Source of the DNA: a bacterium | Lineage (GTDB): Bacteria > Hinthialibacterota > Hinthialibacteria > H5-UNCL2 | Assembly: GCA_015075175.1 (NCBI GenBank) | Contig: JABTUV010000012.1 | Coordinates: 36,018-100,017 of the forward strand | DNA: 64,000 nucleotides | Reading direction: 5' to 3' | In this document: one piece after another, positions 50,272-64,000 of the stretch | Layout: every line of letters starts with the position of its first letter | Position numbering within the stretch: the stretch's first letter is position 1 | The notes under the pieces: generated by a model | What the model saw: the letters and a program-made list of their open reading frames with translations, nothing else | Databases searched by the model: none | What the model was told of the DNA's origin: nothing | Made by a program: the position numbers and the translations under genes

Positions 50272-50347
50272 GCAGGAGTAGCTCAGTTGGTAGAGCTCCA
50301 CGTTGCCAACGTGGTTGTCGCGGGTTCGAGTCCCGTCTCCTGCTCCA
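50272..50347 (+). tRNA. tRNA-Gly (anticodon GCC)
   Basis: Cloverleaf folded by hand: acceptor GCAGGAG/CTCCTGC, D-arm GCTCAGTTGGTAGAGC, anticodon stem CCACG/CGTGG with loop TTGCCAA, T-arm GGGTTCGAGTCCCG, 3' CCA encoded. Confidence 0.9.
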
Positions 50348-50438
50348 TAAGTCTTCGAAAACCAACCACTTAGGTGACCGGCTTTTGCCGTGGGTTGTAA
50401 CCGTCAGGTCAATTGACCTGAGAATGGAGGTTTCGCCC

Positions 50439-51650
50439 ATGCGCATGCAAACGCCACGGACATCAGCTCCCCCTCTCTGCCACCACAAACCCAGCGGACG
50501 GGCACACGTCAACCTGGACAGCAGACGCCGCGTCTATCCGGGCAAGTTTGGCACCAAGCAAGCGAACGAGAACTACCGCCGCTTCATCGCGGAGTGGTCG
50601 GTCGGTGCTCACGATCATTGCGGCAAGCGCCGACTCCTGGTGCTGGACCTCATCGCCAGGTACCAGCAGTTCTGCCGGGAGCACTACCGGCAAGCGGACG
50701 GGACCGTGCTCCAAGAGGCGCAGGCGGTCCAGTACGCCTTGAAGCCGGTCCGAGAGCTGTACGCGGACCTGCCAGCGGAGCAGTTCGGGCCGCTGAAACT
50801 GAAGGCCGTCCGTGAAGCAATGATCGCTCGTGGGTGGAACCGCACTTACGTCAACCAGAAGGTGGGTCGCGTGAAGCGGATGTTCAAGTGGGCGACCGAG
50901 AACGAGCTGATACCGCCAGCGGTCTGGCACGGACTGCATGCTCTCGATGGGCTTCGAACCGGGCGCTGCCAAGTCCGCGAACCAAAGAAGGTCGCGCCCG
51001 TGGCAAACGAGCTCGTCGAAGCGACGAAGAAGCACGTCTCACGGCAGGTCGCGGCGCAGATCGATTTCTTGCTACTCACCGGCGCGCGTCCTTCGGAACT
51101 ACTCTCTTTGCGGCCGTGCGACATCGACCGCAGTGAGTCCGTCTGGCAATACCGCCCCCGAACGCGCAAAAACGCCCACCGTGGTCAGGACCGTGTGATC
51201 TACTTGGGGACCAATGCGCAGGCCGTCCTCAAGGAGTTTCTCCTGCGACCTGCGGAGGCCTTCCTCTTCAGTCCACGAGAGGCCGAAGCCGAACGCCACA
51301 CCCTGTCTCCTACGCACCGACGCGCCGACCAGAAACCGAACGTCAACGAGACAGGCAGAAGAGTGCGGGACAGATACGATGCACGATCCTTCTACCGGGC
51401 AATCCCTCGCGCGTGCGATGCAGCCTTTCCGCCTCCCGAGCACTTGGACGAAGAGGGGCTTGCCGCCTGGAGGGCGGCGCACCGCTGGTTCCCATACCAA
51501 CTCAGGCACAACGCCGCTACCTTGCTCGCGACGGAGTACGGAATCGAAGCCGCACAGACCATCCTGGGGCACAAGAAACTCGATGCGACCCAGATTTACG
51601 CGGAGCGGGACAGAGAGAAGGCGAAGAAGATCATCGCGAAGGTGGGATAG
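50439..51650 (+). mobile_element. tyrosine-type site-specific integrase adjacent to the tRNA-Gly 3' end
   Basis: C-terminal catalytic motifs LLLTGARPSELLSL (Arg box), HNAATLLATEYG...LGHKKLDATQIYAERD (H-x-x-R...Y); begins 92 bp after the tRNA. Confidence 0.85.
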
Positions 51651-52093: not shown

Positions 52094-52372
52094 ATGGATA
52101 TCCATGACCCTTTCGAAACCGAGCGCAAGCTCGTTTTTCAAGATCTCACGAATATCCTAAACACTGGCCTAAACCGCCACCAGCCGCACTACTCGTACCA
52201 GATGCTCTGGAGGTGGGCGAGGCGCGGGGTCTGCGCACACAACGGTGAAAGAGTCCGCCTCGAACATGAGCGTCGGGGCGGACGACTATACACAAGCGTC
52301 GAAGCGATTCAGCGATTCGGCCAGAATCTGGCGGAGGCGGATACGGAGTACTTCGATGAGAGCGCCGGCTGA
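52094..52372 (+). CDS. DUF1580-like small DNA-binding protein (excisionase/regulator candidate)
   Basis: 92 aa; WRWARRGVCAHNGERVRLEHERRGGRLYTSVEAIQRF resembles the Planctomycete DUF1580 pattern; AT-rich upstream region. Confidence 0.4.
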   Translation: MDIHDPFETERKLVFQDLTNILNTGLNRHQPHYSYQMLWRWARRGVCAHNGERVRLEHERRGGRLYTSVEAIQRFGQNLAEADTEYFDESAG

Positions 52373-53480
52373 ATCGGCGGTAATCCGAAGCGCGGTCACG
52401 GTTACGGCCCTGACGGGCAAGCAGTCGGGCAACTACAACTTCTCCAATGAAGTGATCCCCAACGAGGCCGTGACCCTGACCCTCAACACGGCGGGAACCT
52501 CCGCGTCCGGCGCCCTGGCGGTGCACTCGGGCGGGGGCATCCGTCCGGGTACGGTCTCTATCGCGGTCACGTTCGACCTCTCGACCGCCTCTTCGAGCGT
52601 GGCGGGCACCCTGCAAGACAACGGGCAGGGCGGGCAGACCGCGCGGCGCACCGACACCGGCGCGGCCCTCACCGTCGCGGCGTCGGCCATCAACTGCATG
52701 ACGGGCGCGTTCTCCATCACCATCACGGGCGATGCGTTCGCGTCCGCATCGGCCACGGCCACCTATCGGGTCAATCTGGAGGGTTCCTCGGACATCCCCG
52801 AAGTGGACGTTCAGATCACCACGAGCACCGTGGAGACCGAGCGCCGCGCCATCAAGCTGCGCTACAGCCGTGAGGCTGCCGACGACGTGATGGCCGAGTG
52901 GGGATTCTCCCTCGAACCGACCATCATTCAGGGCATCGCCGCCCAGTGCATCGCGGAGATGTGGGTTTACGCGACCGTGGCCTCCACCTTCTCCATCACC
53001 CCCGGTTCGGGAGTGGCCTACAACCAGCAGGCTCACTTCGCGGACTTCATCTACAACTTGAACGTCGCCTCCAACGCCATCCAATTCGCCACGCGCATTG
53101 CGTATGGCAACTGGATCATCGTGGACCAGGGTGCGGCGAACGTGATCGAGTCCCTTCCGGGCACCATGTTCCAGGCGGCTCCGAGGCCGGAGTACGCGAT
53201 GGGTCTCCACTACATCGGACTCTTGATGGGCAAGTTCCGGGTGTACAAGTGGCTGTACCTGTCCGCCCTGCCGGGGGTCTCGGCCTATGGCAACTTGCTG
53301 ATGGGCTGGAAGGGAACCGAACCGTGGGACGCGGGCTTTGTGCTGGCTCCCCAACACCAGCTCTACACCACTGATCAAATCACGCTGGAAGGCTTTGTGA
53401 GCCGTCGTGGGTTCGCCACCCGCAACGCCACCAAGGTCATCAACCCGAACGTGTTTCGGAGGATCAACCTGTCGGCGTAA
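52356..53480 (+). CDS. phage major-capsid-like protein (stand-alone)
   Basis: Ser/Thr-rich N-half, E-loop-like ERRAIKLRYSREAADDVMAEWGFSLEPTIIQGIAAQ, HK97-like C-half; no other head genes nearby. Confidence 0.45.
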   Translation: MRAPAESAVIRSAVTVTALTGKQSGNYNFSNEVIPNEAVTLTLNTAGTSASGALAVHSGGGIRPGTVSIAVTFDLSTASSSVAGTLQDNGQGGQTARRTDTGAALTVAASAINCMTGAFSITITGDAFASASATATYRVNLEGSSDIPEVDVQITTSTVETERRAIKLRYSREAADDVMAEWGFSLEPTIIQGIAAQCIAEMWVYATVASTFSITPGSGVAYNQQAHFADFIYNLNVASNAIQFATRIAYGNWIIVDQGAANVIESLPGTMFQAAPRPEYAMGLHYIGLLMGKFRVYKWLYLSALPGVSAYGNLLMGWKGTEPWDAGFVLAPQHQLYTTDQITLEGFVSRRGFATRNATKVINPNVFRRINLSA

Positions 53481-53595
53481 TGACGCGGTGTCATTCGACA
53501 AGGACATGGTGGCATTCTTGGCGGAGTCGAGCCGGAGCGAGGCGCAAACCGCCGTCCGGTTGCGCTACTACCGCCAGAACCCGGAGGACGTGAAC

Positions 53596-54498
53596 ATGTT
53601 ATTCTTGGACGACGACCAGATGTGCGCACAGCTCACGACGGCGGAGCTGAACGAGGCCAGCCTGTCGCGGATTTTCTCGCACATGGGTTCTCAGCCGTTC
53701 GCCATCGTGTCCGCGCAGCGTGGAGACCGGATTACGGTCTCGAAGGACGCTACCCCCGCCGAGAAGGAACAGGCGGCCATTGCGAACACTGCGGCGAACA
53801 ACCAGATGCGCCAGTGGGCCGCGAGCGAAATCCGTTCCATCTTCAAGAAGAGCTTCATCAAGGTAATGGGGGCTTACCGGGAGAAGGGTGCGCCGGACGT
53901 GGACAGAGAGTACAGCTTCTTCCTCCCGAACGTGTCCCGTGAGGAGGCCCTGAAGCTGGCCCGGCACTTCACGTCCCACAAGACCTCCGGCGACCCTGAT
54001 AACATCTTCTGGGGCACGCCGGACAAGGAGGGTTTCTGGGTTTACGGGGACGGTCGCTTCAAGAAGATCGGCGACCGGATCACCACGTCCAACATGCCCA
54101 AGTACTACACCGAGTGGCGGTGGCGCAAGAACCGGAGCGCGGTGAATAAGCGCGCCGGGGCGCGCTTCACGTCCGTGGGGCGGCTTGGGATTACGGACAT
54201 CCGCGCGCGGGGCGAGTCCGAGTACGTTGCGCGTATCCGCTACATCCCCGAGTCCATCCACGAGTTCAAGAGCTGGATTATGGAGCTGGATAGCGTCATC
54301 GAGACGCGGGGAGCTGACACACAGTACGCGACCCGCTTTCGGGACGACGCGGGGGAGTTGACCATCAAGGCGGGCGACTACATCCGCTGGCGTACCTTGG
54401 CAGGCGACCCTCATTACGGCCCGATCAAGCAAATGGACGGCAACGTCGCCGTGATCGACTGCGAGGTGCACCACAAGGACTGCCCGTGCGAGTGCTGA
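53596..54498 (+). CDS. hypothetical island protein (C-terminal Cys motif HHKDCPCEC)
   Basis: ATG with GGAGG RBS inside track ORF 53407..54498; no family recognised. Confidence 0.4.
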   Translation: MLFLDDDQMCAQLTTAELNEASLSRIFSHMGSQPFAIVSAQRGDRITVSKDATPAEKEQAAIANTAANNQMRQWAASEIRSIFKKSFIKVMGAYREKGAPDVDREYSFFLPNVSREEALKLARHFTSHKTSGDPDNIFWGTPDKEGFWVYGDGRFKKIGDRITTSNMPKYYTEWRWRKNRSAVNKRAGARFTSVGRLGITDIRARGESEYVARIRYIPESIHEFKSWIMELDSVIETRGADTQYATRFRDDAGELTIKAGDYIRWRTLAGDPHYGPIKQMDGNVAVIDCEVHHKDCPCEC

Positions 54499-54645: not shown

Positions 54646-55257
54646 ATGACGCGCAAGGTGGACACCGCTGTCGTGCCGCAAGCCCGGATTGAGCGGGTCA
54701 TTCTCGTGGTTCGAGGAGTGAAGGTCATCCTTGACGCCGAACTGGCCGCGCTCTACGGGGTGCCGACCAAGCGCCTCAATGAGCAGGTCAAGCGCAACGC
54801 CGACCGCTTTCCGGAGGACTTCAGGTTCCGGCTCACCCGCGAGGAGCACGATGCGGTCCTGCGGCTGAGCTTGGAGGCGGAACCCGCGAACCGGTCACAA
54901 ATTGCGACCGCTCCGAACCGGTCGCAATTTGTGACCGATTCCCAAAAGCACCGCGATCCGCGCTACCTGCCCTGGGCCTTCACGGAGCACGAGACGATCA
55001 TGGCCGCGAACGTGCTCAACTCCCGGCGGGCGGTGGAAATGAGCGTCCACGTGGTGCGCACCTTCGTGCGCCTGCGGGAGGCGGCGGGGCGTTACGAAGA
55101 ACTCGCCCGACGCCTTCGCCAGGTCGAACAGCGCGTCGGGCAACACGACACCCATCTGGCCGGCATTCTGCGCGCGCTACGCCAATTGGCGGAAGCGCCC
55201 GAACCCAAACGCATCGGCAAGACCGGTTTTGCAGTCCCGGAGAAGAGATCGAAATGA
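54646..55257 (+). CDS. ORF6N (KilA-N-like) domain protein
   Basis: N-terminal ERVILVVRGVKVILDAELAALYGVPTKRLNEQVKRNADRFPEDFRFRLTREE matches the ORF6N DNA-binding domain; contains an internal tandem operator-like palindrome pair at 54887-54937. Confidence 0.6.
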   Translation: MTRKVDTAVVPQARIERVILVVRGVKVILDAELAALYGVPTKRLNEQVKRNADRFPEDFRFRLTREEHDAVLRLSLEAEPANRSQIATAPNRSQFVTDSQKHRDPRYLPWAFTEHETIMAANVLNSRRAVEMSVHVVRTFVRLREAAGRYEELARRLRQVEQRVGQHDTHLAGILRALRQLAEAPEPKRIGKTGFAVPEKRSK

Positions 55258-55559
55258 GCGAACGGAAAACCCGCCTTGAACTCACTTGGATCGGCAAGGA
55301 GAACCGGGCGAAGCTGGAGCCTCGGGTTTTGCTTGAGGACCCGGAGTTGTCGTATCATGCGGCGCGGCGAGTTTCGGATAAGGATATCTTCGACAACCGG
55401 CTCATCTTCGGCGATAACCTCTTGGCGCTCGAGGCGCTGGAGCAGGAGTTCGCCGGCACGGGCAAGTGCAATCGGAACGACCCGCCGTGCAACGCAGCCT
55501 CAGCTTTCGCCCACTACGCCGGGGGCCACGAATGTCACCATGACATTCTGGCAGAGTAA
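55254..55559 (+). pseudogene. N-terminal remnant of a type III (beta-class) DNA methyltransferase Mod; catalytic DPPY reads DPPC, then a premature stop
   Basis: LTWIGKE...RLIFGDNLLALEAL...GKCNRNDPPCN parallels the intact Mod at 61557 (RMILGDSLQVMASL...GKVQMIYLDPPYG) but ends after 101 aa. Confidence 0.55.
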
Positions 55560-55927
55560 TGCCACTATTGACAGAAGTGATGCTTGCGCTCACTCGGAAG
55601 GTCGGCCTGCGAGCTGAAGCTCCGAGGACGGTCCCCGACGCCACTACAACGCGCCGGGAAGCCCGGAAAAGCCACGATGTAAGGCCCCCTTGGGCGGCTA
55701 CGAAGCGAACCACGGCGACCGTCCTGGCGTGGCATCGTGACACTCTCTCCGGCTTGTGACACGATGACCTTCGATTGCGTCGCTTGAAAGGGGTCGGCAC
55801 TTCCGTCATACTGGTTGCCGCCGTTGACCCACGACCTGCTACACCGGACTGAAGACCATTGTTAAGTGGACCGTGCTAGAGTTCCAAGTTGGGAACCGCC
55901 GCGTCGATGTCTGAGTGAGGTTTGCCC

Positions 55928-58900
55928 GTGAAGCAAGTGGTGATCGAAAACCCCATCCTGAACTCCCCCTTCGAGGAGCCGTCCCGGCATTTCCGCTTCA
56001 CGGACGAGGGGATCACCGACGACATTGACGATGGCCGCCGCGAGAGCGCCTACTTCATCCCCGTCCCGCCGCCCAAGAAGAAGGGCCAGGCCGACACCCA
56101 GATGGCGCTGCCGGAAACGCACTGGACCAGGGACCGCCTCAAGCCCAACGACGACATCAATCGCATCCGCACGCATGTCGGCCTGTGGCGGCGGGCCGGC
56201 TACCGTGGCGTCACGGCGACCACGGCCAAGCTCCTGGCGCACTGGAACGACCCGACCCGCGAGCGGAAGCTCTTCTTTTGCCAGCGGGAGGCGGTCGAGA
56301 CCGTCATCTACCTGACCGAGATCGCCGAACGCGACCAGAACGTGTGGATTCTCAACCGGCTGCGGGACTACAACCGCGACGCCAACCCCGAGCTCTTCCG
56401 CATGGCCCTCAAGATCGCCACCGCCGGCGGCAAGACCACCGTGATGGCCATGCTCATCGCCTGGCACACGCTCAACAAGCAGGCCAACAAGCAGGACGCC
56501 CGCTTCTCGGATACGTTCCTCATCGTCACGCCCGGCATCACCATCCGCGACCGCCTGCGCGTGCTCTTGCCGTCCGACCCGGACAACTACTACCGCAAGT
56601 GGGACCTCGCGCCGCCCGACCTGATGCAGCAGCTCCTCCAAGCCAAGGTGCTCATCACCAACTTCCATGCCTTCAAGCTGCGCGAGAAGGTCTCCCTCAA
56701 CAAGACGGGCAAGGCCGTCATGCAGGGCACGGATGCCAAACCGCCCTCCTTCACCGAGACGCCCGACGAGATGGTCCGGCGCGTCTGCCGCGATCTCGGC
56801 AACAAGAAGAACATCGTCGTCATCAACGACGAAGCCCACCACTGCTACCGCCACAAACCGGACGGCGCAGAAGAAGTGCTCAAGGGTGAGGATCGCAAAG
56901 AGGCTCAGAAGCGCGAAGAAGCCGCCCGCATCTGGATTTCCGGCATCGAGGCGGTCAAGCGGAAGATCGGCGTGCGCATGGTGTACGACCTGTCGGCAAC
57001 CCCGTTCTTTCTGCGCGGATCGGGCTACCCGGAAGGCATGCTCTTCCCGTGGGTCGTCTCGGACTTCGCGCTGATCGACGCCATCGAGAGCGGCATCGTC
57101 AAGGTCCCTCGCGTGCCCGTCGCCGACGACTCCATGATCGGCGAGCAGCCCACCTATCGCGATCTCTGGTATCGCATCCGCGAGGGGCTGCCCAAGAAAG
57201 GCCGTGGGACCGAAGCCGTCGCCGGCGAGCCGGTCCTGCCGGCGGAGCTGGAGAGCGCGCTTCAAAGCCTGTACGCCAACTACAAGAAGCGCTTTACCGC
57301 CTGGCAGGCGAGCCGTGACGGCAACAACTCCCATTCCACGCCGCCCGTGTTCATCGTCGTCTGCAACAACACCAACGTGTCGAAGCTGGTCTTCGACTAC
57401 GTCTCTGGCTGGGAGAAGCCGCTCCCCGACGGCGACTCAGTCCTCGTCCCCGGCCACCTGGAGCTCTTCAGCAACGTCGAGAACGGCGCATGGTCCGCGC
57501 GGCCCAAGACCATCCTGATCGACTCCGAGCAGCTGGACTCCGGCGAGGCCATGAGCGACGAGTTCCGCAAGGTCGCCGCCGTCGAGATCGACGAGTTCAA
57601 GCGCGAGTACGCCTGGACCGCTTTCCCGGTCGGGACGTGGAGAAGATCGGCAGCGAAGACCTGCTCCGCGAAGTCATGAACACGGTCGGCAAGCCCGGCA
57701 AGTTGGGTGAGCAGGTCCGATGCGTGGTCAGCGTCTCGATGCTGACCGAAGGCTGGGACGCCAATACCGTCACGCACATCCTGGGCGTGCGCGCATTCGG
57801 TACGCAGCTCCTGTGCGAGCAGGTCGTCGGGCGGGCGCTCCGGCGCATCAGTTACGCCGCCAACGACGAGGGCAAGCTGGAGCCGGAGTACGCCGAAATC
57901 TACGGTGTGCCCTTCTCCTTCATCCCGTGCGCCGGCGCGCAGAAGGAACCGCCGCCCGGCCCCACGCCTACCCGCGTGCGCGCCCTGTCGGAGCGGATCG
58001 ATTGCGAGATCACCTTCCCGCGCCTGCAAGGCTACCGTTACGACTTCCACGACGCCGAGCTGCACGCCACGTTCACGCGCGATTCGCGCATGGCGCTCTC
58101 GACCGACGACGTACCCACCAAGGTCGAGAACGCCCCCATCGTCGGCGAGACCACCATCCACACCCTGGACGAGCTCAAGGCCCGCCGCCCGCAGGAGGTC
58201 GCCTTTCTCCTGGCCAAGCTCGTCCTGGAGCGGTACTTCCGCTGGGACGGCGTCGTGCAGCCGGAGAATAAGTCGGAGCACAAGTGGGAGGCCGGCGTCA
58301 AAGCCTGGCTCTTCCCCCAAGTGCTACGCATCGCCAAGGACTGGATGGCCGAATGCGTCGTCTGCAAGGACAACTGCTTCCCGCAGATGCTCCTGCTCCT
58401 GGAGTTTGCCCACGGCGCGGCCAACCGCATCTATCACGCCATCGTGCAAGGCGACCAGGGCGAGAAGACGCTCAAGCCGATCCTGTTTCCGTATGATCCC
58501 GAAGGCAGCACGCGCTACGTGGACTTCGACACCACGCGCCCGGTGTATTCGACGCGCCCCGACAAGTGCCACGTCTCGCACGTGGCCGCCGATACCAAGG
58601 ACTGGGAGCAGAAGGTCGCGCGCTCGCTGGAGGACATGGACGAGGTGGTCTGTTACGTGAAGAACCAGAACCTCGGCTTCAAGATTCCCTACGTCGCGAG
58701 CGGCGAGCCGAGGAACTACGTGCCCGATTACATCGTCCGCATCAATGACGGCGCGCCGGAGCCGCTCAACCTGATTATCGAGGTGACGGGTGAGAAGCGC
58801 CCGGACAAAGCGGAGAAGGTCGCCGCCGCCCGCGCGCTCTGGGTCCCCGCCGTCAACAACCACGGCGGATTCGGACGATGGGCGTTTTTGGAAGTGGACG

Positions 58901-58959
58901 ATCCGGCGAATGTGAAGAACGCGATCCGGGATTCCATACCGGCATTGAGCGAGGGATAG
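55928..58959 (+). CDS. type III restriction endonuclease Res subunit (DEAH helicase), split by one frameshift near 57630
   Basis: N-terminal VIENPILNSPFEEPSRHF, Walker A IATAGGKTTV, DEAH VINDEAHHC (frame of ORF 55922..57679). Motifs V-VI MLTEGWDANTVTHILGVRAF...QVVGRALRR are in ORF 57490..58959. Frames join at gctttcccggtcggg. Alternative TTG start at 55922. Confidence 0.6.
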
Positions 58960-58965
58960 CTGGCA

Positions 58966-59868
58966 ATGGTACCGACTCAGGGACAACTTCATTTGTTTGG
59001 CGGCGATTGGACCAAAGAGAAGCTGGAGCGCGTGCGACAATACCTCACGGCGTACACCAAGATCATGCGCAAGAAGGACTACCAGTTTGGATACATAGAC
59101 GCCTTTGCCGGAACGGGATACCTAGCCCTGAAGGATGCAAAGGCCGAGGCCAAGCGCTTATTTCCTGAACTGATGGAGACGGAAGCTCGTGATTTCGTCG
59201 AAGGGTCCGCCCACGTCGCCTTGGAGGTGGAACCGCCTTTCGAGAAGTACATCTTCATTGAGAAGCAGGGCTGCCGGTCGTCGGAGCTGCAACGACTACG
59301 CGACGAGTTTCCCGCCAAGGCCAACGACATCGTGATCGTGCAGGCCGAGGCCAACACCTACCTGCAAGACTTGTGTCGCAACCGCGTTTGGAAGAAGCAT
59401 CGTGCCGTCCTGTTCTTGGACCCATACGGAATGCAGGTGGAGTGGGAGACCATGAAGGCGATTGCCAAGACGCGCGCCATAGACCTCTGGCTCCTCTTCC
59501 CTTTGGGCGTGGCAGTAAACCGACTACTCCGTCGGGATGGGCTAATAGACGAGGGCTGGCGGCATCGCTTGGACCTCATGTTCGGGGATACGGGCTGGTT
59601 CTCGCGCTTCTACAATGTCGAGAACGAGCAGACCTTCTTCGGCCCGGAGCAGAAGGCAGTGAAGACGGCGGACGCCAAGGCGATTGGTCGCTACTTCGTC
59701 GAGCGGTTGCAGAGCGTGTTTCCCGGAGTCGCGAAGAATCCCCTGGCTTTGAGCAATACCAAGAACTGCCCCCTTTACCTGCTATGCTTTGCCACGGCGA
59801 ATCCAGACGCTGCGACCTTGGCAGTGAAGATTGCGCAAGCCATTCTCAGAGGGCCGAGGATACGCTAA
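58966..59868 (+). CDS. TcmP-like protein (three-Cys-motif partner protein family)
   Basis: 300 aa; overall similarity, from memory, to the TcmP family that pairs with DUF5131 (Gp37/Gp68) proteins; starts 7 nt after the Res stop. Confidence 0.5.
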
Positions 59869-60632
59869 TGGGCATGAAATCCTCCATCGAGTGGACCGAG
59901 TCCACTTGGAATCCGATAACGGGGTGCGACAAGGTCAGCCCCGGATGCAAGTTCTGTTACGCCGAGCGCATGGCCATGCGGCTCCAGGCAATGAGGCAGC
60001 CCAACTACCGCAATGGCTTTGCGCTGACCGTGCATGAGCACGCGCTGGAGCTCCCGCTCCGCTGGAAGCAGCCTCAGACGATCTTCGTCAACTCCATGTC
60101 GGACCTCTTCCACAAGGACGTACCGCTGGCGTTCATCCGCCGCGTCTTCGACGTAATGAAACGAGCACACTGGCATCGCTTCCAAATCCTGACCAAGCGC
60201 TCGGAGCGGCTCTTCATGCTGCGGAGCAAGATCGAATGGCCGCCCAACGTCTGGATGGGCGTCAGCGTCGAGACCGCGCACTACGCGGAACGAATCGACC
60301 ACCTGCGCAAGGTCCCCGCCGCGATCCGCTTCCTCTCGCTGGAGCCGCTGCTCGGGCCGCTGCCGGGTCTCGACCTGTCGGGAATCGATTGGGTGATCGT
60401 TGGCGGGGAGTCCGGGCCGGGCGCGCGTCCGATGGATGAAGCATGGGTGCTCGACATCCGCGACCAGTGCGAAGCCGCCGGCGTTCCCTTCTTCTTCAAG
60501 CAATGGGGCGGTGTCAACAAGAAGAAGGCGGGGCGACTACTGGAGGGCCGGACGTGGGATGGGATGCCGCTCCGCTTCCAGTCCGAGACGCCGATTCCGT
60601 CTGAGGACCTCGCCGCGGCTGAGCGAAGTTAA
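59868..60632 (+). CDS. phage Gp37/Gp68-family three-Cys-motif protein (DUF5131)
   Basis: N-terminal [30 protein letters not shown] (C-x5-C-x2-C), typical of DUF5131; start overlaps the TcmP stop (TAATG). Confidence 0.6.
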
Positions 60633-60664
60633 CCACACGATTTGTATCGAGGGGACGCTCACAA

Positions 60665-61546
60665 ATGGGAGGGAGAGCAGTGAATGACAATTCCCAGCAT
60701 ACCAGCACACAGAGGAGCCACGAACCGCTGGTGGGCTTCGTCAACCTTGCGCGGGCGCTACTGCTGCTTGGTATTGTGAGTTTTCTTGGCGTTGCCGGCC
60801 TTCTCTTGTTGACACATCCGTCCGTCAACTTCTCACTCAAACAACGCCTCATGCGCCAGGAGGAGGAAGCGCGCGCCGTCAGGGAAGAGCTGGCGCGGTT
60901 AACCGCGGAAAGTGAGAAGGCGACTGCCGCGGAAAAAGAGAAACGGCTGCGCCAATGGAAATACGACTTGTTCTCCGACGTTGACGTAAGGGAAGATAGC
61001 TATCCCATTGTGGTGCTGCGCAGTGGGTTCAAGGTCATTCGCTTGGGGACGGACCACTCGTTAGTTGGATGGAAATACGAGCTGATTAACACGTCACCGA
61101 AGACCACGTATGTCGCCAATGTGACCTTTACGCTTCAGGATGCCGATGGCTTCGACATCGATTCCGGCGTAGGGGAGGCGGCGATTCCGGCAGAGCGATA
61201 CGGCGTAGTCACTGGAACTATCAACGTCGACAACGTAGATGTCGAGCGGCTTTCGGATTCCAGCTGGGCGATTGGGCTGAAGCCTAACTGGAAGGAAAAC
61301 GAGCGCCAAACCCCCGGAACTCGGGACTCGCGACTCACAAAACTAGCGAAATCCCAGATGCCTCTGTGGGTCTATGAGCTTGCGAAACTGGAATACATGG
61401 GCATTTCCGCGAAATGGAAGGCGATTCAGGTCGGCCTTGGAATCGAGTTACCGGCGAACCCCCCAGATGCACCCGCGGGGGCAACCCCGGAGTCCGATTC
61501 CAAGCCGGGCGCAACTGCTCCAGTCAGTGAGACTACTGCCAAGTAA
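60665..61546 (+). CDS. membrane-anchored hypothetical protein
   Basis: 293 aa; N-terminal TM helix LLLLGIVSFLGVAGLLLL, coiled-coil segment, C-terminal beta-rich domain; alternative GTG start at 60680 with GGGAGGGA RBS. Confidence 0.4.
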   Translation: MGGRAVNDNSQHTSTQRSHEPLVGFVNLARALLLLGIVSFLGVAGLLLLTHPSVNFSLKQRLMRQEEEARAVREELARLTAESEKATAAEKEKRLRQWKYDLFSDVDVREDSYPIVVLRSGFKVIRLGTDHSLVGWKYELINTSPKTTYVANVTFTLQDADGFDIDSGVGEAAIPAERYGVVTGTINVDNVDVERLSDSSWAIGLKPNWKENERQTPGTRDSRLTKLAKSQMPLWVYELAKLEYMGISAKWKAIQVGLGIELPANPPDAPAGATPESDSKPGATAPVSETTAK

Positions 61547-61556
61547 AGGACTGCTC

Positions 61557-64000
61557 ATGGTCAGACGCAAGAGTAACGCGAAGACCCCCGCCTCCATCCC
61601 TGTGGAGGCCCATACGCACAAGGACAAGCGCAAGAATATCCCCACGCGAGAGCTGCGGGATTTCGTCGAGGATGAGGAAAAATCCCCCAAGACGCTGCTC
61701 TATCCGCGCGATCCGTCGCTGGACCCGCAGCTGGTCTGGAAGGGGAAGGATGAGCAGGACGCCGCCGACCTCGTAGTGGTCGCGCCGCCGATTTACATTC
61801 AGGAGAAAATCCATCCGCAGGCCATCGTCGAGGACATCCGCGCCTCGGCCAGGAGCGCCGGGCGGGAGCGGCAGATGGATTTGTTCGCCGACTTCAACGG
61901 CCTCTCCTTCGAGCAGAAGATCGAGTTCTACCAGCACGACGCGCATTGGTCCAACCGCATGATCCTCGGCGACTCACTCCAGGTCATGGCGTCGCTGGCG
62001 GAGAAAGAGGCGTTGCGCGGCAAGGTGCAGATGATCTACCTCGACCCGCCCTACGGCATCAAGTTCGGCTCCAACTGGCAGGTGAGCACCCGCAAGCGCG
62101 ACGTGAAGGACGGCAAGGCGGAAGACGCCACGCGCCAGCCGGAACAGATTCGCGCCTTCCGCGATACGTGGAAGCTCGGCATCCACAGCTACCTCGCCTA
62201 TCTCCGCGACCGCCTTACCGTCGCCCGTGATCTCCTGACCGAGTCCGGCAGCATCTTCGTCCAGATGAACTCGGAAAACGTTCACTTAGTGCGATCATTG
62301 CTCGACGAGGTGTTTGGCTCCGAAAACTTTGTTGCCGACATTGTCTTTAGAAAGAAGAGCCTGCCTCTTGGCGCGAAGTATCTGGAGACGATGCACGATC
62401 ACGTACTCTTTTATGCCCGAGATGTAAACTTTCTCAAGTTTCGCCACTTCTACGAGCGAGGTGGCGTCGAGATCGTCGGCGGTCATGGACCATACGCGCT
62501 GTACCCTGACGGTAGTCATGAACGCATATCTGAAGATGAGTTTGAGTCGTCAGAGCATCCCGAAGGGACGCGGTACTACTGCCTGTTCGCTCTCCTTGCG
62601 CCCTCATTTTCCGCAAATACTGTGTATCAATATCGAGTTGACGGACGCGATTTCGACTCGCCTAACAACGGTTCATGGGTGGTTACGTCGAGTAAGCTTG
62701 ATGTGTTGAAATGCGCTGACCGCCTGGAGCCGGAGGGCAAGAATCTCCGATACCGGCTCATGTATGACGACTTTCCTTATCGAAAGGGAACGAACATATG
62801 GGTAGATACACAGGCCGCCTTCAAGAAGTCCTACGTCGTGCAGACCAGCACGAAAATCATTGAACGCTGTCTCCTCATGACCACCGATCCCGGCGACTTG
62901 GTGCTCGATCCGACGTGCGGGAGTGGGACGACTGCCTACGTGGCCGAGCAGTGGGGGCGGCGCTGGATCACCATTGATACGAGCCGCGTCGCGCTGGCGC
63001 TGGCGCGCACCCGCCTGATGGCCGCCCGCTTTCCGTACTACCTCCTCGCCGACACGCGCGAAGGCATGGAGAAGGAAGCCGAGCTCTCCGGCCAGCCGAT
63101 GCCCGACATTTCCCCGCAAGGCGATCTCAAGAAGGGCTTCGTCTATCGCCGCGTGCCGCACGTAACGCTGAAGTCCATCGCCAACAACGCGGAGATTGAT
63201 GAAATCCACGCCCGCTGGCAGAAGCAGCTGGAGCCGCTCCGCGCCAAGCTCAACAAGGCCGCCCGCGAGAAATGGGAGGAGTGGGAAATCCCGCGCGAGC
63301 CGGGCGAGAAGTGGAGCGCCGAGGCCAAGTCGCTACACGGTGAGTGGTGGAAGTTGCGCCGCCGGCGCCAAGCCGAGATTGACGCCTCCATCGCCCGCCG
63401 CGCCGAAACGGAGACGCTCTACGACCAGCCGCTCGACGACAAGAAGCGCGTGCGCGTGACCGGCCCCTTCACCGTCGAGAGCCTGTCGCCGCATCGCGTG
63501 CTTTCCACCGACGGGGAGATGCCCCGGAGCGAACGCAGCGGCGAGACGGAGAAGTCGGGCCGCTACGAGAGCGTGATCCTTGAGAACCTGAAGGCGTCCG
63601 GCGTGCAGAACCAGACCAAGACGGAGCGCCTGAAGTTCGACCGCCTGGAGCCGCTGGCCGGCACGTGGTTGCAGGCTGCCGGCGAATACACCGAGAACGG
63701 CAAGTCGCGCCGCGTGGCGGTCGCGCTTGGACCCGAGCATGGGACGGTCGGCCCGGATCTCGTCAAGGAAGCGGCCAAGGAAGCGGTCCTCGGCGTGGGC
63801 TACGATCTATTGCTCGTCTGCGGCTTCGCCTTTGATCCGCACGTGTCGGAAGAGACGAAACGCTACGGCAAGCTGACCATCCTTCCGGTGCGCATGAACC
63901 CGGACCTGTCGATGGGCGACGAGCTGCTCAAGAAGACGGGATCGGCGAACCTGTTCATGGTCTTCGGCGAACCGGACGTGATAGTGAGCAGTGGGCCGTG
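61557..64000 (+). CDS. type III restriction-modification Mod subunit / N6-adenine (beta-class) DNA methyltransferase, partial; ORF runs off the window
   Basis: Open frame from ATG 61557 (RBS AAAGGA) to the window end with no stop (the track omits edge-truncated ORFs). Motif IV IYLDPPYG precedes motif I VLDPTCGSGTTAYVA, the beta-class order; long C-terminal extension. Confidence 0.7.
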   Translation, partial: MVRRKSNAKTPASIPVEAHTHKDKRKNIPTRELRDFVEDEEKSPKTLLYPRDPSLDPQLVWKGKDEQDAADLVVVAPPIYIQEKIHPQAIVEDIRASARSAGRERQMDLFADFNGLSFEQKIEFYQHDAHWSNRMILGDSLQVMASLAEKEALRGKVQMIYLDPPYGIKFGSNWQVSTRKRDVKDGKAEDATRQPEQIRAFRDTWKLGIHSYLAYLRDRLTVARDLLTESGSIFVQMNSENVHLVRSLLDEVFGSENFVADIVFRKKSLPLGAKYLETMHDHVLFYARDVNFLKFRHFYERGGVEIVGGHGPYALYPDGSHERISEDEFESSEHPEGTRYYCLFALLAPSFSANTVYQYRVDGRDFDSPNNGSWVVTSSKLDVLKCADRLEPEGKNLRYRLMYDDFPYRKGTNIWVDTQAAFKKSYVVQTSTKIIERCLLMTTDPGDLVLDPTCGSGTTAYVAEQWGRRWITIDTSRVALALARTRLMAARFPYYLLADTREGMEKEAELSGQPMPDISPQGDLKKGFVYRRVPHVTLKSIANNAEIDEIHARWQKQLEPLRAKLNKAAREKWEEWEIPREPGEKWSAEAKSLHGEWWKLRRRRQAEIDASIARRAETETLYDQPLDDKKRVRVTGPFTVESLSPHRVLSTDGEMPRSERSGETEKSGRYESVILENLKASGVQNQTKTERLKFDRLEPLAGTWLQAAGEYTENGKSRRVAVALGPEHGTVGPDLVKEAAKEAVLGVGYDLLLVCGFAFDPHVSEETKRYGKLTILPVRMNPDLSMGDELLKKTGSANLFMVFGEPDVIVSSGP

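Follow-up and report, generated by a model that had tools for sequence, protein, structure and literature searches.

A TcmP and DUF5131 gene pair carried as nested cargo between the res and mod genes of a type III-like restriction-modification locus

The DNA analysed here, referred to as the window, is a stretch of 64,000 nucleotides from a bacterium of the Hinthialibacterota (GenBank assembly GCA_015075175.1, contig JABTUV010000012.1, positions 36,018 to 100,017 of the forward strand). It carries a restriction-modification (R-M) locus in which three genes, the first two encoding a TcmP and a DUF5131 protein, lie between the genes for Res and Mod. The features concerned are as follows, in window coordinates.

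50272..50347, + strand, tRNA-Gly(GCC) found by ARAGORN, the likely attachment site of an island
50385..51650, + strand, tyrosine integrase of the island (PF00589 at 5.5e-12)
55254..55559, + strand, remnant of a different type III Mod (575-aa class; PADLOC MTase_III PDLC03636), N-terminal ~70 aa and then degenerate
55922..57679, + strand, N-terminal part of Res (helicase, DEAH motif; NF046055, PF04851 ResIII), ending prematurely after a +2 frameshift
57604..58959, + strand, C-terminal part of Res in another frame (helicase C-terminal and PD-(D/E)xK-type nuclease; NF046055, PADLOC REase_III)
57610..57611, + strand, 2-bp insertion that splits Res, absent from three homologues with an intact Res
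58966..59868, + strand, TcmP, predicted class I SAM-enzyme fold (RlmJ/Trm1-like), with matches to TIGR04474 and PDC-M41A
59868..60632, + strand, DUF5131 (Gp37-Gp68; PF07505), predicted radical-SAM fold, C-x6-C-x2-C motif, with a match to PDC-M41B
60665..61546, + strand, third gene, swappable single-gene cargo, likely start GTG 60680
61557..64000, + strand, Mod, a large beta-class type III-like N6/N4 methyltransferase (PDLC03632) that runs past the window end

The original prediction had placed open reading frames at 58966-59868, 59868-60632 and 60665-61546, and these positions were confirmed; the Mod open reading frame begins at 61557, and all four lie on the + strand of the window. The start of DUF5131 overlaps the stop of TcmP by 1 nt (TAATG), and the following gaps of 32 nt and 10 nt are as predicted, while the gap between Res and TcmP measured 6 nt and not 7 nt. 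The placement of the R-M operon on an integrase-bearing island also holds. The tyrosine integrase gene starts 38 nt 3' of the tRNA-Gly gene. One promoter-like site was detected, upstream of res, and no terminator-like site was detected on the + strand in the intergenic stretches of the operon. Both are weak evidence for an operon, in which the res promoter would probably drive all genes as a single transcript.

Res was predicted to be a single gene. Relative to three intact homologues, two extra bases split it into two overlapping open reading frames (55922-57679 and 57490-58959). The N-terminal part matches NF046055 (BPTD_3080 restriction endonuclease) over profile positions 1-542 of 970 with 695.7 bits, and the C-terminal part over positions 538-968 with 498.9 bits, each below the cut-off of 800. 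The C-terminal part is 95% identical in amino acid sequence to Res of the nearest relative of the locus (L001). The frameshift may be an assembly error. A homopolymer sequencing error was considered and set aside, because the inserted bases, CG, lie in a non-repetitive context, and for the same reason a genuine mutation is the more likely explanation. The nested cargo and Mod look intact while res is frameshifted.

Mod has the beta-class motif order that was predicted for it, with DPPY before the FxGxG-type motif (DPTCGSGTT), and it matches the PADLOC MTase_III model PDLC03632 at 1.4e-259. Its target-recognition region (62328-62842) differs from that of the nearest relative, and the blastn alignment breaks there. 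The order of res followed by a large mod, as found here, is also found in 4 plasmid loci and in metagenome loci wherever Mod lies within range. The Mod remnant upstream of Res matches PDLC03636 at 7e-34 over profile positions 4-92 of 575 only; it lies outside the res-to-mod unit and is unrelated to the Mod at 61557. We considered it as the true partner of Res and rejected it, because Res-then-Mod is the usual order of the family and the remnant belongs to another class of Mod.

The third gene encodes a protein with an N-terminal hydrophobic segment, probably anchoring it in the membrane, followed by a charged stretch resembling a coiled coil and by a C-terminal domain. A start at GTG 60680, which is preceded by the Shine-Dalgarno sequence GGGAGGGAG, appears more likely than the first start of the open reading frame and would give a 47-nt gap after DUF5131. 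No family was found for the protein in Pfam, NCBIfam, PADLOC or PHROGs, and its homologues are few, at 61 cluster representatives in a set of 1.84 billion. The contigs carrying these homologues are mostly too short to inform on context; one homologue lies directly 3' of a CI-like repressor gene in a prophage. In the nearest relative, which shares 87-92% nucleotide identity with the window on both sides, a HEPN_AbiU2-like gene replaces the third gene only. Most other embedded loci contain the TcmP and DUF5131 genes without any third gene, and no homologue of the third gene was found in 169 loci. Membership of the third gene in the module was rejected on these grounds, and the three-gene cassette of the original prediction is better described as two independent cargo units, the third gene being a second, unrelated single-gene cargo.

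The family assignments of the other two proteins were borne out by profile searches. TcmP matches TIGR04474 (three-Cys-motif partner protein) at 1.4e-58 with 198.9 bits, against a cut-off of 53, over profile positions 1-260 of 263. DUF5131 matches PF07505 at 2e-106 with 355.4 bits, against a threshold of 28.9, over the full model (1-243 of 243). The cysteines of DUF5131 (C20, C27 and C30) are invariant among 30 homologues, and their spacing is C-x6-C-x2-C and not C-x5-C-x2-C as first described. In the PHROGs collection DUF5131 matches phrog_2045, whose function is not known, and TcmP has no match.

SAM-enzyme folds were predicted for both proteins. The model of TcmP resembles RlmJ, Trm1 and RsmD, that is, a Rossmann-type class I SAM methyltransferase fold. 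The model of DUF5131 shows the partial TIM barrel of radical-SAM enzymes, and among these spore photoproduct lyase and viperin come nearest to it. TcmP homologues keep a motif I-like DAFAG[TAP]G (DAFAGTG in the window) and a motif IV-like LDP[YF]G down to 26-32% identity; motif IV is atypical in that one proline is missing, and both SAM motifs are lost in some homologues, such as the actinophage protein BaxterFox gp42. The TcmP of the window belongs to no Pfam family and matches no Pfam methyltransferase model, 33 homologues of TcmP compared with Pfam at a permissive limit (E of 5) gave noise and weak PF02005 (TRM) matches in 2 of the 33 (E 0.04), and a PDB search with a TcmP profile gave nothing useful. 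For DUF5131, the Pfam scan gave no match to PF04055 (Radical_SAM), no PDB sequence match appeared at E up to 10, and the only radical-SAM-type profile match was TIGR04471, under its cut-off.

The two genes differ in their rate of change. Between the window and the nearest relative, amino acid identity is 71% for TcmP, 94% for DUF5131 and 92-95% for Res, and at the nucleotide level TcmP is 60-83% identical, compared with about 90% for the flanking sequence. TcmP proteins of a class at 26-32% identity are paired with DUF5131 proteins that are still about 70% identical to that of the window. By these comparisons, TcmP evolves faster than its DUF5131 partner.

The pair is very common, in many phyla and also in phages, with at least 6,000 TcmP and at least 8,000 DUF5131 cluster representatives among the matches listed. 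DUF5131 lies directly downstream of TcmP in 68 of 80 TcmP loci, with a median gap of 12 nt, and in 10 of the 80 a canonical CxxxCxxC radical-SAM gene adjoins TcmP instead. Autonomy was judged from 55 species-level TcmP loci with sufficient flanking sequence. The pair is not confined to Res/Mod loci: it is embedded in Res/Mod in 6 of the 55 and stands alone in the other 49 (~89%), for instance in a defence-island-like region, in a prophage remnant or among housekeeping genes. Beside the stand-alone pairs, no conserved nuclease or other effector was found in the contexts examined. Neighbour-joining trees, which carry no support values, showed embedded and stand-alone pairs interleaved for both TcmP and DUF5131, and Res proteins with the pair scattered among Res proteins whose slot is empty or holds other cargo; no single embedded clade co-diverging with Res and Mod was seen in these trees. 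Embedding in R-M is, on this phylogenetic evidence, polyphyletic. From this, and from the predominance of stand-alone loci (about 89%) among related pairs, we conclude that the pair is autonomous cargo and not an R-M subunit.

The junction between res and mod was surveyed in 84 Res-centred loci of the BPTD_3080 family. It was empty in 28, held other cargo in 29 and TcmP with DUF5131 in 11, and could not be classified in 16; among the 68 classifiable loci this amounts to 41% empty, 43% other cargo and 16% TcmP with DUF5131, which is the commonest single cargo. Nearly all cargo is co-directional. It includes UPF0175 with DUF3368, GmrSD_N, AAA_15/21, Bro-N, M78, Dcm with HATPase_c_3, HepT, DUF3800, Fic, cNMP-TIR and HEPN_AbiU2, and its classes include GmrSD, ABC-type ATPases and toxin-antitoxin pairs. 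Many of the cargo genes could be assigned to no family. A new observation of the present analysis is that in this BPTD_3080-type res-then-mod family the res|mod junction is a hypervariable cargo slot.

Both proteins have counterparts among the PADLOC models. TcmP matches PDC-M41A (PDLC04635) at 4.6e-119 and DUF5131 matches PDC-M41B (PDLC04639) at 6.7e-123, nearly end to end, and the pair also matches PDC-M30B. Both PDC-M41 components are present here, adjacent on the same strand with the 1-nt overlap. PDC-M41 and PDC-M30 are phage-defence candidates of PADLOC that were predicted because their genes lie embedded in BREX, DISARM and type I R-M systems ("guilt-by-embedding"; Payne, Hughes, Fineran and Jackson 2024, bioRxiv 10.1101/2024.01.29.577857); type III-like res-then-mod operons were outside that screen. 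In the literature searched, we found no experiment showing anti-phage activity of PDC-M41 or PDC-M30 and no functional study of DUF5131/PF07505, TcmP, the "Gp68 family" or BPTD_3080. At least one other PDC candidate failed on testing.

TcmP and DUF5131 (58966-60632) form a self-contained, translationally coupled two-gene module, a mobile cargo in the res|mod slot. The locus is best annotated as a decayed R-M system (res being frameshifted) in which two cargo units are nested independently of each other, and a new five-gene system is not the right description. As to function, we think it probable that the pair is an autonomous SAM-dependent accessory module, carried as nested cargo and acting on nucleic acids or nucleotides. 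The pair would work by itself and would not belong to the R-M enzyme as a subunit, and we infer that its two enzymes together form a SAM-dependent machine for the chemical alteration of a nucleotide or of a base in a nucleic acid. The fast-evolving TcmP would likely be the substrate-binding or methylating component, the conserved DUF5131 would likely perform radical chemistry, and the outcome would be an accessory or back-up barrier against phages or competing mobile elements. Both substrate and chemistry in this proposal are wholly our inference, and it counts against the proposal that no Pfam methyltransferase or Radical_SAM model matches the pair by sequence. Of the roles first put forward (DNA modification, anti-restriction or auxiliary defence), auxiliary defence is reasonable, because the same slot in relatives carries GmrSD, HepT, Fic, cNMP-TIR and similar genes.

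It could also be argued that the most frequent cargo of the slot, found there in several phyla, signals a functional link with R-M and not a mere landing site. The pair would then function as a component of an R-M variant with four genes, adding or altering a DNA modification and thereby changing which DNA Res cuts or Mod protects. At least 18 loci from several phyla have the order Res-TcmP-DUF5131-Mod, with the genes tightly spaced and co-directional, TcmP and the target-recognition region of Mod are the two most diverged segments between the window and its nearest relative, and all four proteins would be SAM-binding or SAM-dependent, which is established for type III R-M and predicted for the pair. 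We nevertheless consider such a variant decidedly unlikely, and the proposal that the pair changes what this R-M system recognises or tolerates was not supported: in about 89% of close pairs the neighbourhood is free of Res and Mod, embedding is scattered over the TcmP, DUF5131 and Res trees, res and mod are directly adjacent in 41% of sister operons with unrelated cargo in others, the same pair was already on record from BREX, DISARM and type I R-M, and in the window the pair looks intact but Res is frameshifted.

There are 179 phage records with DUF5131, in most of which tblastn detected no TcmP, and its neighbours there are genes of replication and nucleotide metabolism (DNA polymerase, exoribonuclease, MazG-like and HD-hydrolase genes). 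This distribution fits a role outside defence, and the pair may be a DNA-repair or nucleotide/nucleic-acid metabolism module borne by mobile elements, the slot being merely tolerant of insertions. A lyase similar to spore photoproduct lyase, or an RNA or DNA base-modification pathway, would be examples. The stand-alone pair among housekeeping genes and the predicted likeness of TcmP to rRNA and tRNA methyltransferases point the same way. We hold this to be unlikely, however, because the other identifiable cargo of the slot is overwhelmingly of defence or toxin type, the pair of Gordonia phage BaxterFox sits in the lysogeny module between integrase and immunity repressor, and the stand-alone pair in a defence-island-like region has Prok-E2/ThiF/JAB, M78 peptidase and HATPase_c_3 genes as neighbours. 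Anti-restriction or self-marking, in which an orphan modification would shield island or host DNA from other restriction systems, an offensive or selfish function of the mobile element and not host immunity, seems very unlikely to us. The predicted folds are typical of nucleic-acid-modifying enzymes, the pair is present on phages and islands, and the lack of a conserved effector beside stand-alone pairs would suit it; but the modified base is putative, none having been observed, the faster evolution of TcmP fits an arms-race sensor or specificity component better than a housekeeping-like self-marking enzyme, and the actinophage TcmP homologue is without SAM motifs.

A bolder extension of the accessory module, which we regard as possible though doubtful, is that TcmP and DUF5131 constitute a mechanistically new anti-phage system, nested preferentially in SAM-dependent immune operons as a back-up. 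The radical-SAM enzyme, guided by a fast-evolving RlmJ-like SAM-binding TcmP, would hypermodify or damage a phage nucleic-acid base or make an antiviral nucleotide. If this were true, the pair nested in type I and type III R-M and in BREX would step in against phages able to neutralise these systems. As a separate matter, the res|mod slot in BPTD_3080-type systems would offer guilt-by-embedding searches a rich and so far unexploited hotspot of new defence genes. This embedding hotspot in type III-like R-M operons, which had not been screened before, is useful by itself. The locus and its relatives offer three testable facts, namely the constant pairing of TcmP with a radical-SAM-type enzyme, the much faster diversification of TcmP than of DUF5131 and the rank of the pair as the commonest cargo.

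Several known systems invite comparison. In fold, the TcmP model is matched best by the nucleic-acid N-methyltransferases RlmJ (23S rRNA m6A2030), Trm1 and RsmD, and DAFAGTG and LDP[YF]G would stand in the order corresponding to RlmJ, a correspondence read from the sequence without an alignment. TcmP has no sequence-profile match to any of these families, and methyl transfer is their activity but only a putative one for TcmP; TYW2, AzeJ and spermidine synthase use the same fold for other SAM chemistry. Viperins have so far been the main known case of radical-SAM chemistry in immunity. Spore photoproduct lyase and viperin/pVip, the predicted fold relatives of DUF5131, are radical-SAM enzymes that act on DNA or nucleotides. 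DUF5131 differs from them in its motif (C-x6-C-x2-C against CxxxCxxC), in having no Radical_SAM Pfam or PDB-chain sequence match, and in needing a TcmP-type partner.

The PrrC anticodon nuclease of the EcoprrI type Ic R-M locus is likewise an accessory gene nested co-directionally in an R-M operon, and it is the paradigm of a back-up defence that fires once R-M is neutralised (bioRxiv 10.1101/2024.01.29.577857). PrrC hardly ever occurs outside such loci and is under the physical control of its R-M, whereas the TcmP and DUF5131 pair mostly stands alone and belongs to entirely different protein families. The closest likeness is to PDC-M41 and PDC-M30, which have in common with the window pair their gene order, strand and nesting inside a multi-gene defence system. 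The two candidates share the family FAM_00989 and differ in their partner families (bioRxiv 10.1101/2024.01.29.577857), which mirrors the conserved DUF5131 and variable TcmP seen here. Their hosts are BREX, DISARM and type I R-M, whereas the host in the window is a type III-like res-then-mod operon. The original prediction took the pair for an undescribed system; being already catalogued as PDC-M41, it makes this locus a good new example of a catalogued phage-defence candidate and not a new kind of system.

The TcmP and DUF5131 genes lie, with a third gene, between the Res and Mod genes of a type III-like restriction-modification (R-M) locus, at the positions named in the original prediction.

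Features of the locus and its island
50272-50347, + strand: tRNA-Gly, adjoining the tyrosine integrase gene
50385-51650, + strand: tyrosine integrase, adjoining tRNA-Gly
55254-55559, + strand: N-terminal remnant (~70 aa) of a different type III Mod, upstream of Res
55922-57679 and 57490-58959, + strand: Res, two overlapping ORFs, NF046055 BPTD_3080 restriction endonuclease
58966-59868, + strand: TcmP, TIGR04474 at 1.4e-58, well above the cut-off
59868-60632, + strand: DUF5131, PF07505 at 2e-106, entire model covered
60665-61546, + strand: third gene, ORF with an alternative start, GTG 60680
61557 to beyond the window end, + strand: Mod, PADLOC MTase_III PDLC03632 at 1.4e-259

The profile searches bore out the families predicted for the pair, the motif order of Mod (DPPY 5' of DPTCGSGTT) agrees with the proposed beta class, and the integrase beside tRNA-Gly confirms an integrase-bearing island. 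As read from the sequence, the stop of TcmP and the start of DUF5131 overlap in TAATG, DUF5131 and the third gene are 32 nt apart, and the third gene and Mod 10 nt, as predicted; the gap between Res and TcmP, given as 7 nt, is 6 nt. The gap after DUF5131 becomes 47 nt with the GTG start, which is preceded by a GGGAGGGAG Shine-Dalgarno and at which a 99%-identical database protein also starts. The cysteine motif of DUF5131, predicted as C-x5-C-x2-C, has the spacing C-x6-C-x2-C. One promoter-like site, at 55784-55812, and the absence of terminator-like sites between the genes on the + strand hint that the res promoter may drive co-transcription.

Res had been taken for a single gene, and is two ORFs that jointly span the NF046055 profile (positions 1-542 and 538-968), split where two extra base pairs (57610-57611) are inserted relative to three intact homologues. 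Because the insertion lies outside any homopolymer, it is probably a genuine mutation that inactivates Res; the nested cargo and Mod both appear intact. The upstream Mod remnant, of a 575-aa class, runs for ~70 aa into degenerate sequence (e.g. GKCNRNDPPCNAAS) with the remainder deleted, suggesting that the present res-then-mod unit was written over an earlier mod-then-res system. The region 52245-54498, which lies between the integrase gene and the R-M unit and is followed by an ORF6N gene (54646-55257), includes a gene for a Gp23-like major capsid protein (PF07068, 1.9e-24); it may represent a phage satellite or degraded prophage. A 363-aa ORF overlapping the capsid gene has weak S-AdoMet-lyase and DUF3293 matches (E ~3e-3); the former, if real, would be notable beside four SAM-dependent genes.

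The locus was correctly and well spotted, yet it is not the undescribed system it was taken for. TcmP matches PADLOC PDC-M41A at 4.6e-119 and DUF5131 matches PDC-M41B at 6.7e-123, both nearly end to end, and DUF5131 additionally matches PDC-M30B. On these matches, the pair is a new instance of the phage-defence candidate PDC-M41. Payne et al. (2024, bioRxiv 10.1101/2024.01.29.577857) gathered the genes nested within BREX, DISARM and type I R-M loci and put forward 145 candidate "PDC" systems, and their supplement gives PDC-M41 as FAM_02405>>FAM_00989 and PDC-M30 as FAM_02577>>FAM_00989. Both cassettes contain FAM_00989, and therefore one common family is joined to two partner families. A literature search turned up neither an experimental test of PDC-M41 or PDC-M30 nor a functional study of DUF5131 or TcmP. 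In RadicalSAM.org, DUF5131 forms a subgroup of the radical-SAM enzymes (megacluster 5-2), beside spore photoproduct lyase (5-3).

The AF2 models of TcmP and DUF5131 each had a pLDDT of 75.7. Foldseek matched TcmP to Trm1 and RlmJ at E ~1e-5 with low TM-scores, and its list also included TYW2, AzeJ and spermidine synthase, SAM enzymes with chemistry other than methyl transfer; TcmP had no sequence-profile match to any methyltransferase family. Invariant in TcmP are a 10-residue stretch and LFLDP[YF]GM, which look like motifs I and IV, and these motif-like sequences are kept in a TcmP class of only 26-32% identity, found at other loci in the same slot. DUF5131 has invariant C20, C27, C30, C201 and GGESGP.

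A scan with one genome per species yielded 80 TcmP loci, 49-64% identical to the window TcmP. DUF5131 lies downstream of TcmP in 68 (median gap 12 nt), and ten of the remaining 11 have a canonical CxxxCxxC radical-SAM gene adjacent, either downstream of TcmP or upstream and divergent from it; the contig of the eleventh does not extend far enough for its partner to be assessed. By these neighbours, the working partner of TcmP is a radical-SAM-type enzyme, and the pairing is obligate. TcmP proteins 50-59% identical to that of the window are accompanied by CxxxCxxC PF04055 proteins instead of DUF5131 at L014, L016, L019, L027, L037 and L038; further such loci are L040, L057, L066, L070 and L176, the last with a DUF6602 gene next.

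Phage records contained DUF5131 in 179 cases, and TcmP was detectable by tblastn in only 2. In Gordonia phage BaxterFox (NC_031226.1, 3237-5233) the convergent gp42 is a TcmP homologue (hhalign probability 98.3%, E 1.5e-14) with degenerate motifs (YIDLMSGQ and FLDQQG), and the pair has the integrase (gp37) to one side and the immunity repressor (gp43) to the other. Its full-length + strand DUF5131 ORF is unannotated, with genes 40 and 41 called over it on the opposite strand.

Placement of the pair inside an R-M operon stood, and its being an integral part was not supported. Res, TcmP, DUF5131 and Mod are colinear in seven of the 80 loci (L007, L008, L011, L012, L015, L049 and L084, from Blastocatellia, Chlorobiota, Nitrospirota, Thermodesulfobacteriota, Omnitrophota, Acidobacteria and Anaerolineales). 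Among the TcmP loci with sufficient flanks, the pair is embedded in 6 of 55 (11%) and stand-alone in 49. Sampled stand-alone pairs lie among housekeeping genes (L004), in a region that resembles a defence island and includes Prok-E2/ThiF/JAB, M78 peptidase and HATPase_c_3 genes (L172), and within a prophage remnant (L174). In NJ trees built for TcmP and for DUF5131, embedded pairs interleave with stand-alone ones (for example L007 with stand-alone L021, L011 with L020, and L084 beside L083), and pair-bearing loci are dispersed in the Res tree among empty-slot and other-cargo loci. This pattern speaks for repeated, independent gains or losses and against one co-evolving four-gene system; since the trees are distance-based and lack support values, the number of events is uncertain, and the overall scatter is clear.

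The res|mod slot was surveyed in 84 Res-centred loci, four annotated plasmid loci and 80 from a metagenome scan with the Res profile. The plasmid loci show res-then-mod to be the usual order of the family, with a variable junction: res and mod are directly adjacent in Chondrocystis, the junction holds a UPF0175+DUF3368 pair in Picosynechococcus pAQ5 and a single hypothetical gene in Methylomagnum (where CBASS genes lie downstream), and in Rhodococcus Mod is disrupted by an IS. Slots were empty (250 nt or less) in 28 loci, or 41% of the 68 classifiable; 29 held other cargo, 11 held TcmP and/or DUF5131 (the entire slot visible in 7), and 16 were unclassifiable. Clustering of the cargo, nearly all of it co-directional, made the pair the largest class; next come a GmrSD_N protein of 543-609 aa (4 loci), a Bro-N protein (3 loci) and AAA_15/21 ATPases, and the many singletons include M78 peptidase, Dcm+HATPase_c_3/Ymh, HepT, DUF3800, Fic and cNMP-binding-TIR. 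From this varied, mostly co-directional cargo we conclude that the BPTD_3080-type res|mod junction is a hypervariable defence-cargo hotspot. Two large multi-gene cargoes are a C5 cytosine methylase with a HATPase_c_3/Hypoth_Ymh protein (L163, 11320-15239) and a cNMP-binding TIR (Pycsar-effector-like) protein with four unknown genes (L166, 11381-14994). Many co-directional slot ORFs had no Pfam family (for example 173 aa in L088, 169 aa in L094, 290 aa in L140, 258 aa in L165, 403 aa in L166), and such ORFs across L086-L169 are potential new defence candidates.

The pair is thus best supported as autonomous cargo, because most pairs stand alone, 41% of slots have no cargo, and the catalogue records the same pair from BREX, DISARM and type I systems. 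The neighbourhood check did find the pair to be the slot's largest cargo class, though 49/55 TcmP loci are stand-alone; we read this frequency as preference or hitch-hiking, and functional synergy with the R-M system is possible.

Nor does the predicted three-gene cassette hold: the third gene is independent single-gene cargo, unrelated to the pair. It is absent at the closest relative, L001, a metagenome contig 87-92% identical in DNA, whose integrase island carries an intact Res of 1009 aa, followed by TcmP, DUF5131, a HEPN_AbiU2-like gene, Mod and finally a TIR protein. Homology between the two is interrupted at exactly two sites, the third gene (60568-61556) and the Mod target-recognition region (62328-62842). 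TcmP (58966-59868 against L001 9902-10804) is 60-83% identical in nucleotides and its flanks (Res, DUF5131, Mod ends) ~90%, reflecting either replacement of the TcmP allele or rapid divergence confined to TcmP. The third gene had no family in Pfam, NCBIfam, PADLOC or PHROGs, and homologues in only 61 cluster representatives among 1.84 billion; its sequence reads as an N-terminal hydrophobic segment and then a charged coiled-coil-like stretch. One homologue adjoins a DUF6119 gene. In a prophage (L180 8001-8768, L181 2715-3482) a homologue is co-directional and directly 3' of a CI-like repressor (HTH_3 + Peptidase_S24), the classic place of lysogen-expressed exclusion genes. From position, we would guess at a superinfection-exclusion type of role.

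Beyond what the loci show directly (gene identities, the tight coupling of the pair, predicted folds, its cargo status and the hotspot nature of the slot), the pair would use SAM-dependent chemistry to alter a nucleic-acid base or a nucleotide, with TcmP binding or methylating the substrate and DUF5131 performing the radical step. Wybutosine synthesis, in which Trm5 acts and then TYW1, provides an analogy for this order. The faster divergence of TcmP would suit a specificity or sensor subunit, and the pair may serve as an accessory barrier to phages. An integral R-M component, despite the colinear loci, is possible with lower probability given the stand-alone pairs; a function in repair or metabolism and anti-restriction self-marking are likewise possible, and less probable than an accessory barrier.

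In the window, the R-M system has a broken res, and the pair is accompanied by a second cargo gene to which it is unrelated. The importance of the locus is moderate, and the real question is what the radical-SAM pair does; the comparative facts from the locus and its relatives make the function of this very common pair more testable. The PDC hosts of Payne et al. are BREX, DISARM and type I R-M, whereas the window host is type III-like R-M, and its res|mod slot is a new context, previously unscreened for embedded genes. The res|mod hotspot is the type III-like counterpart of the embedding described in those systems.
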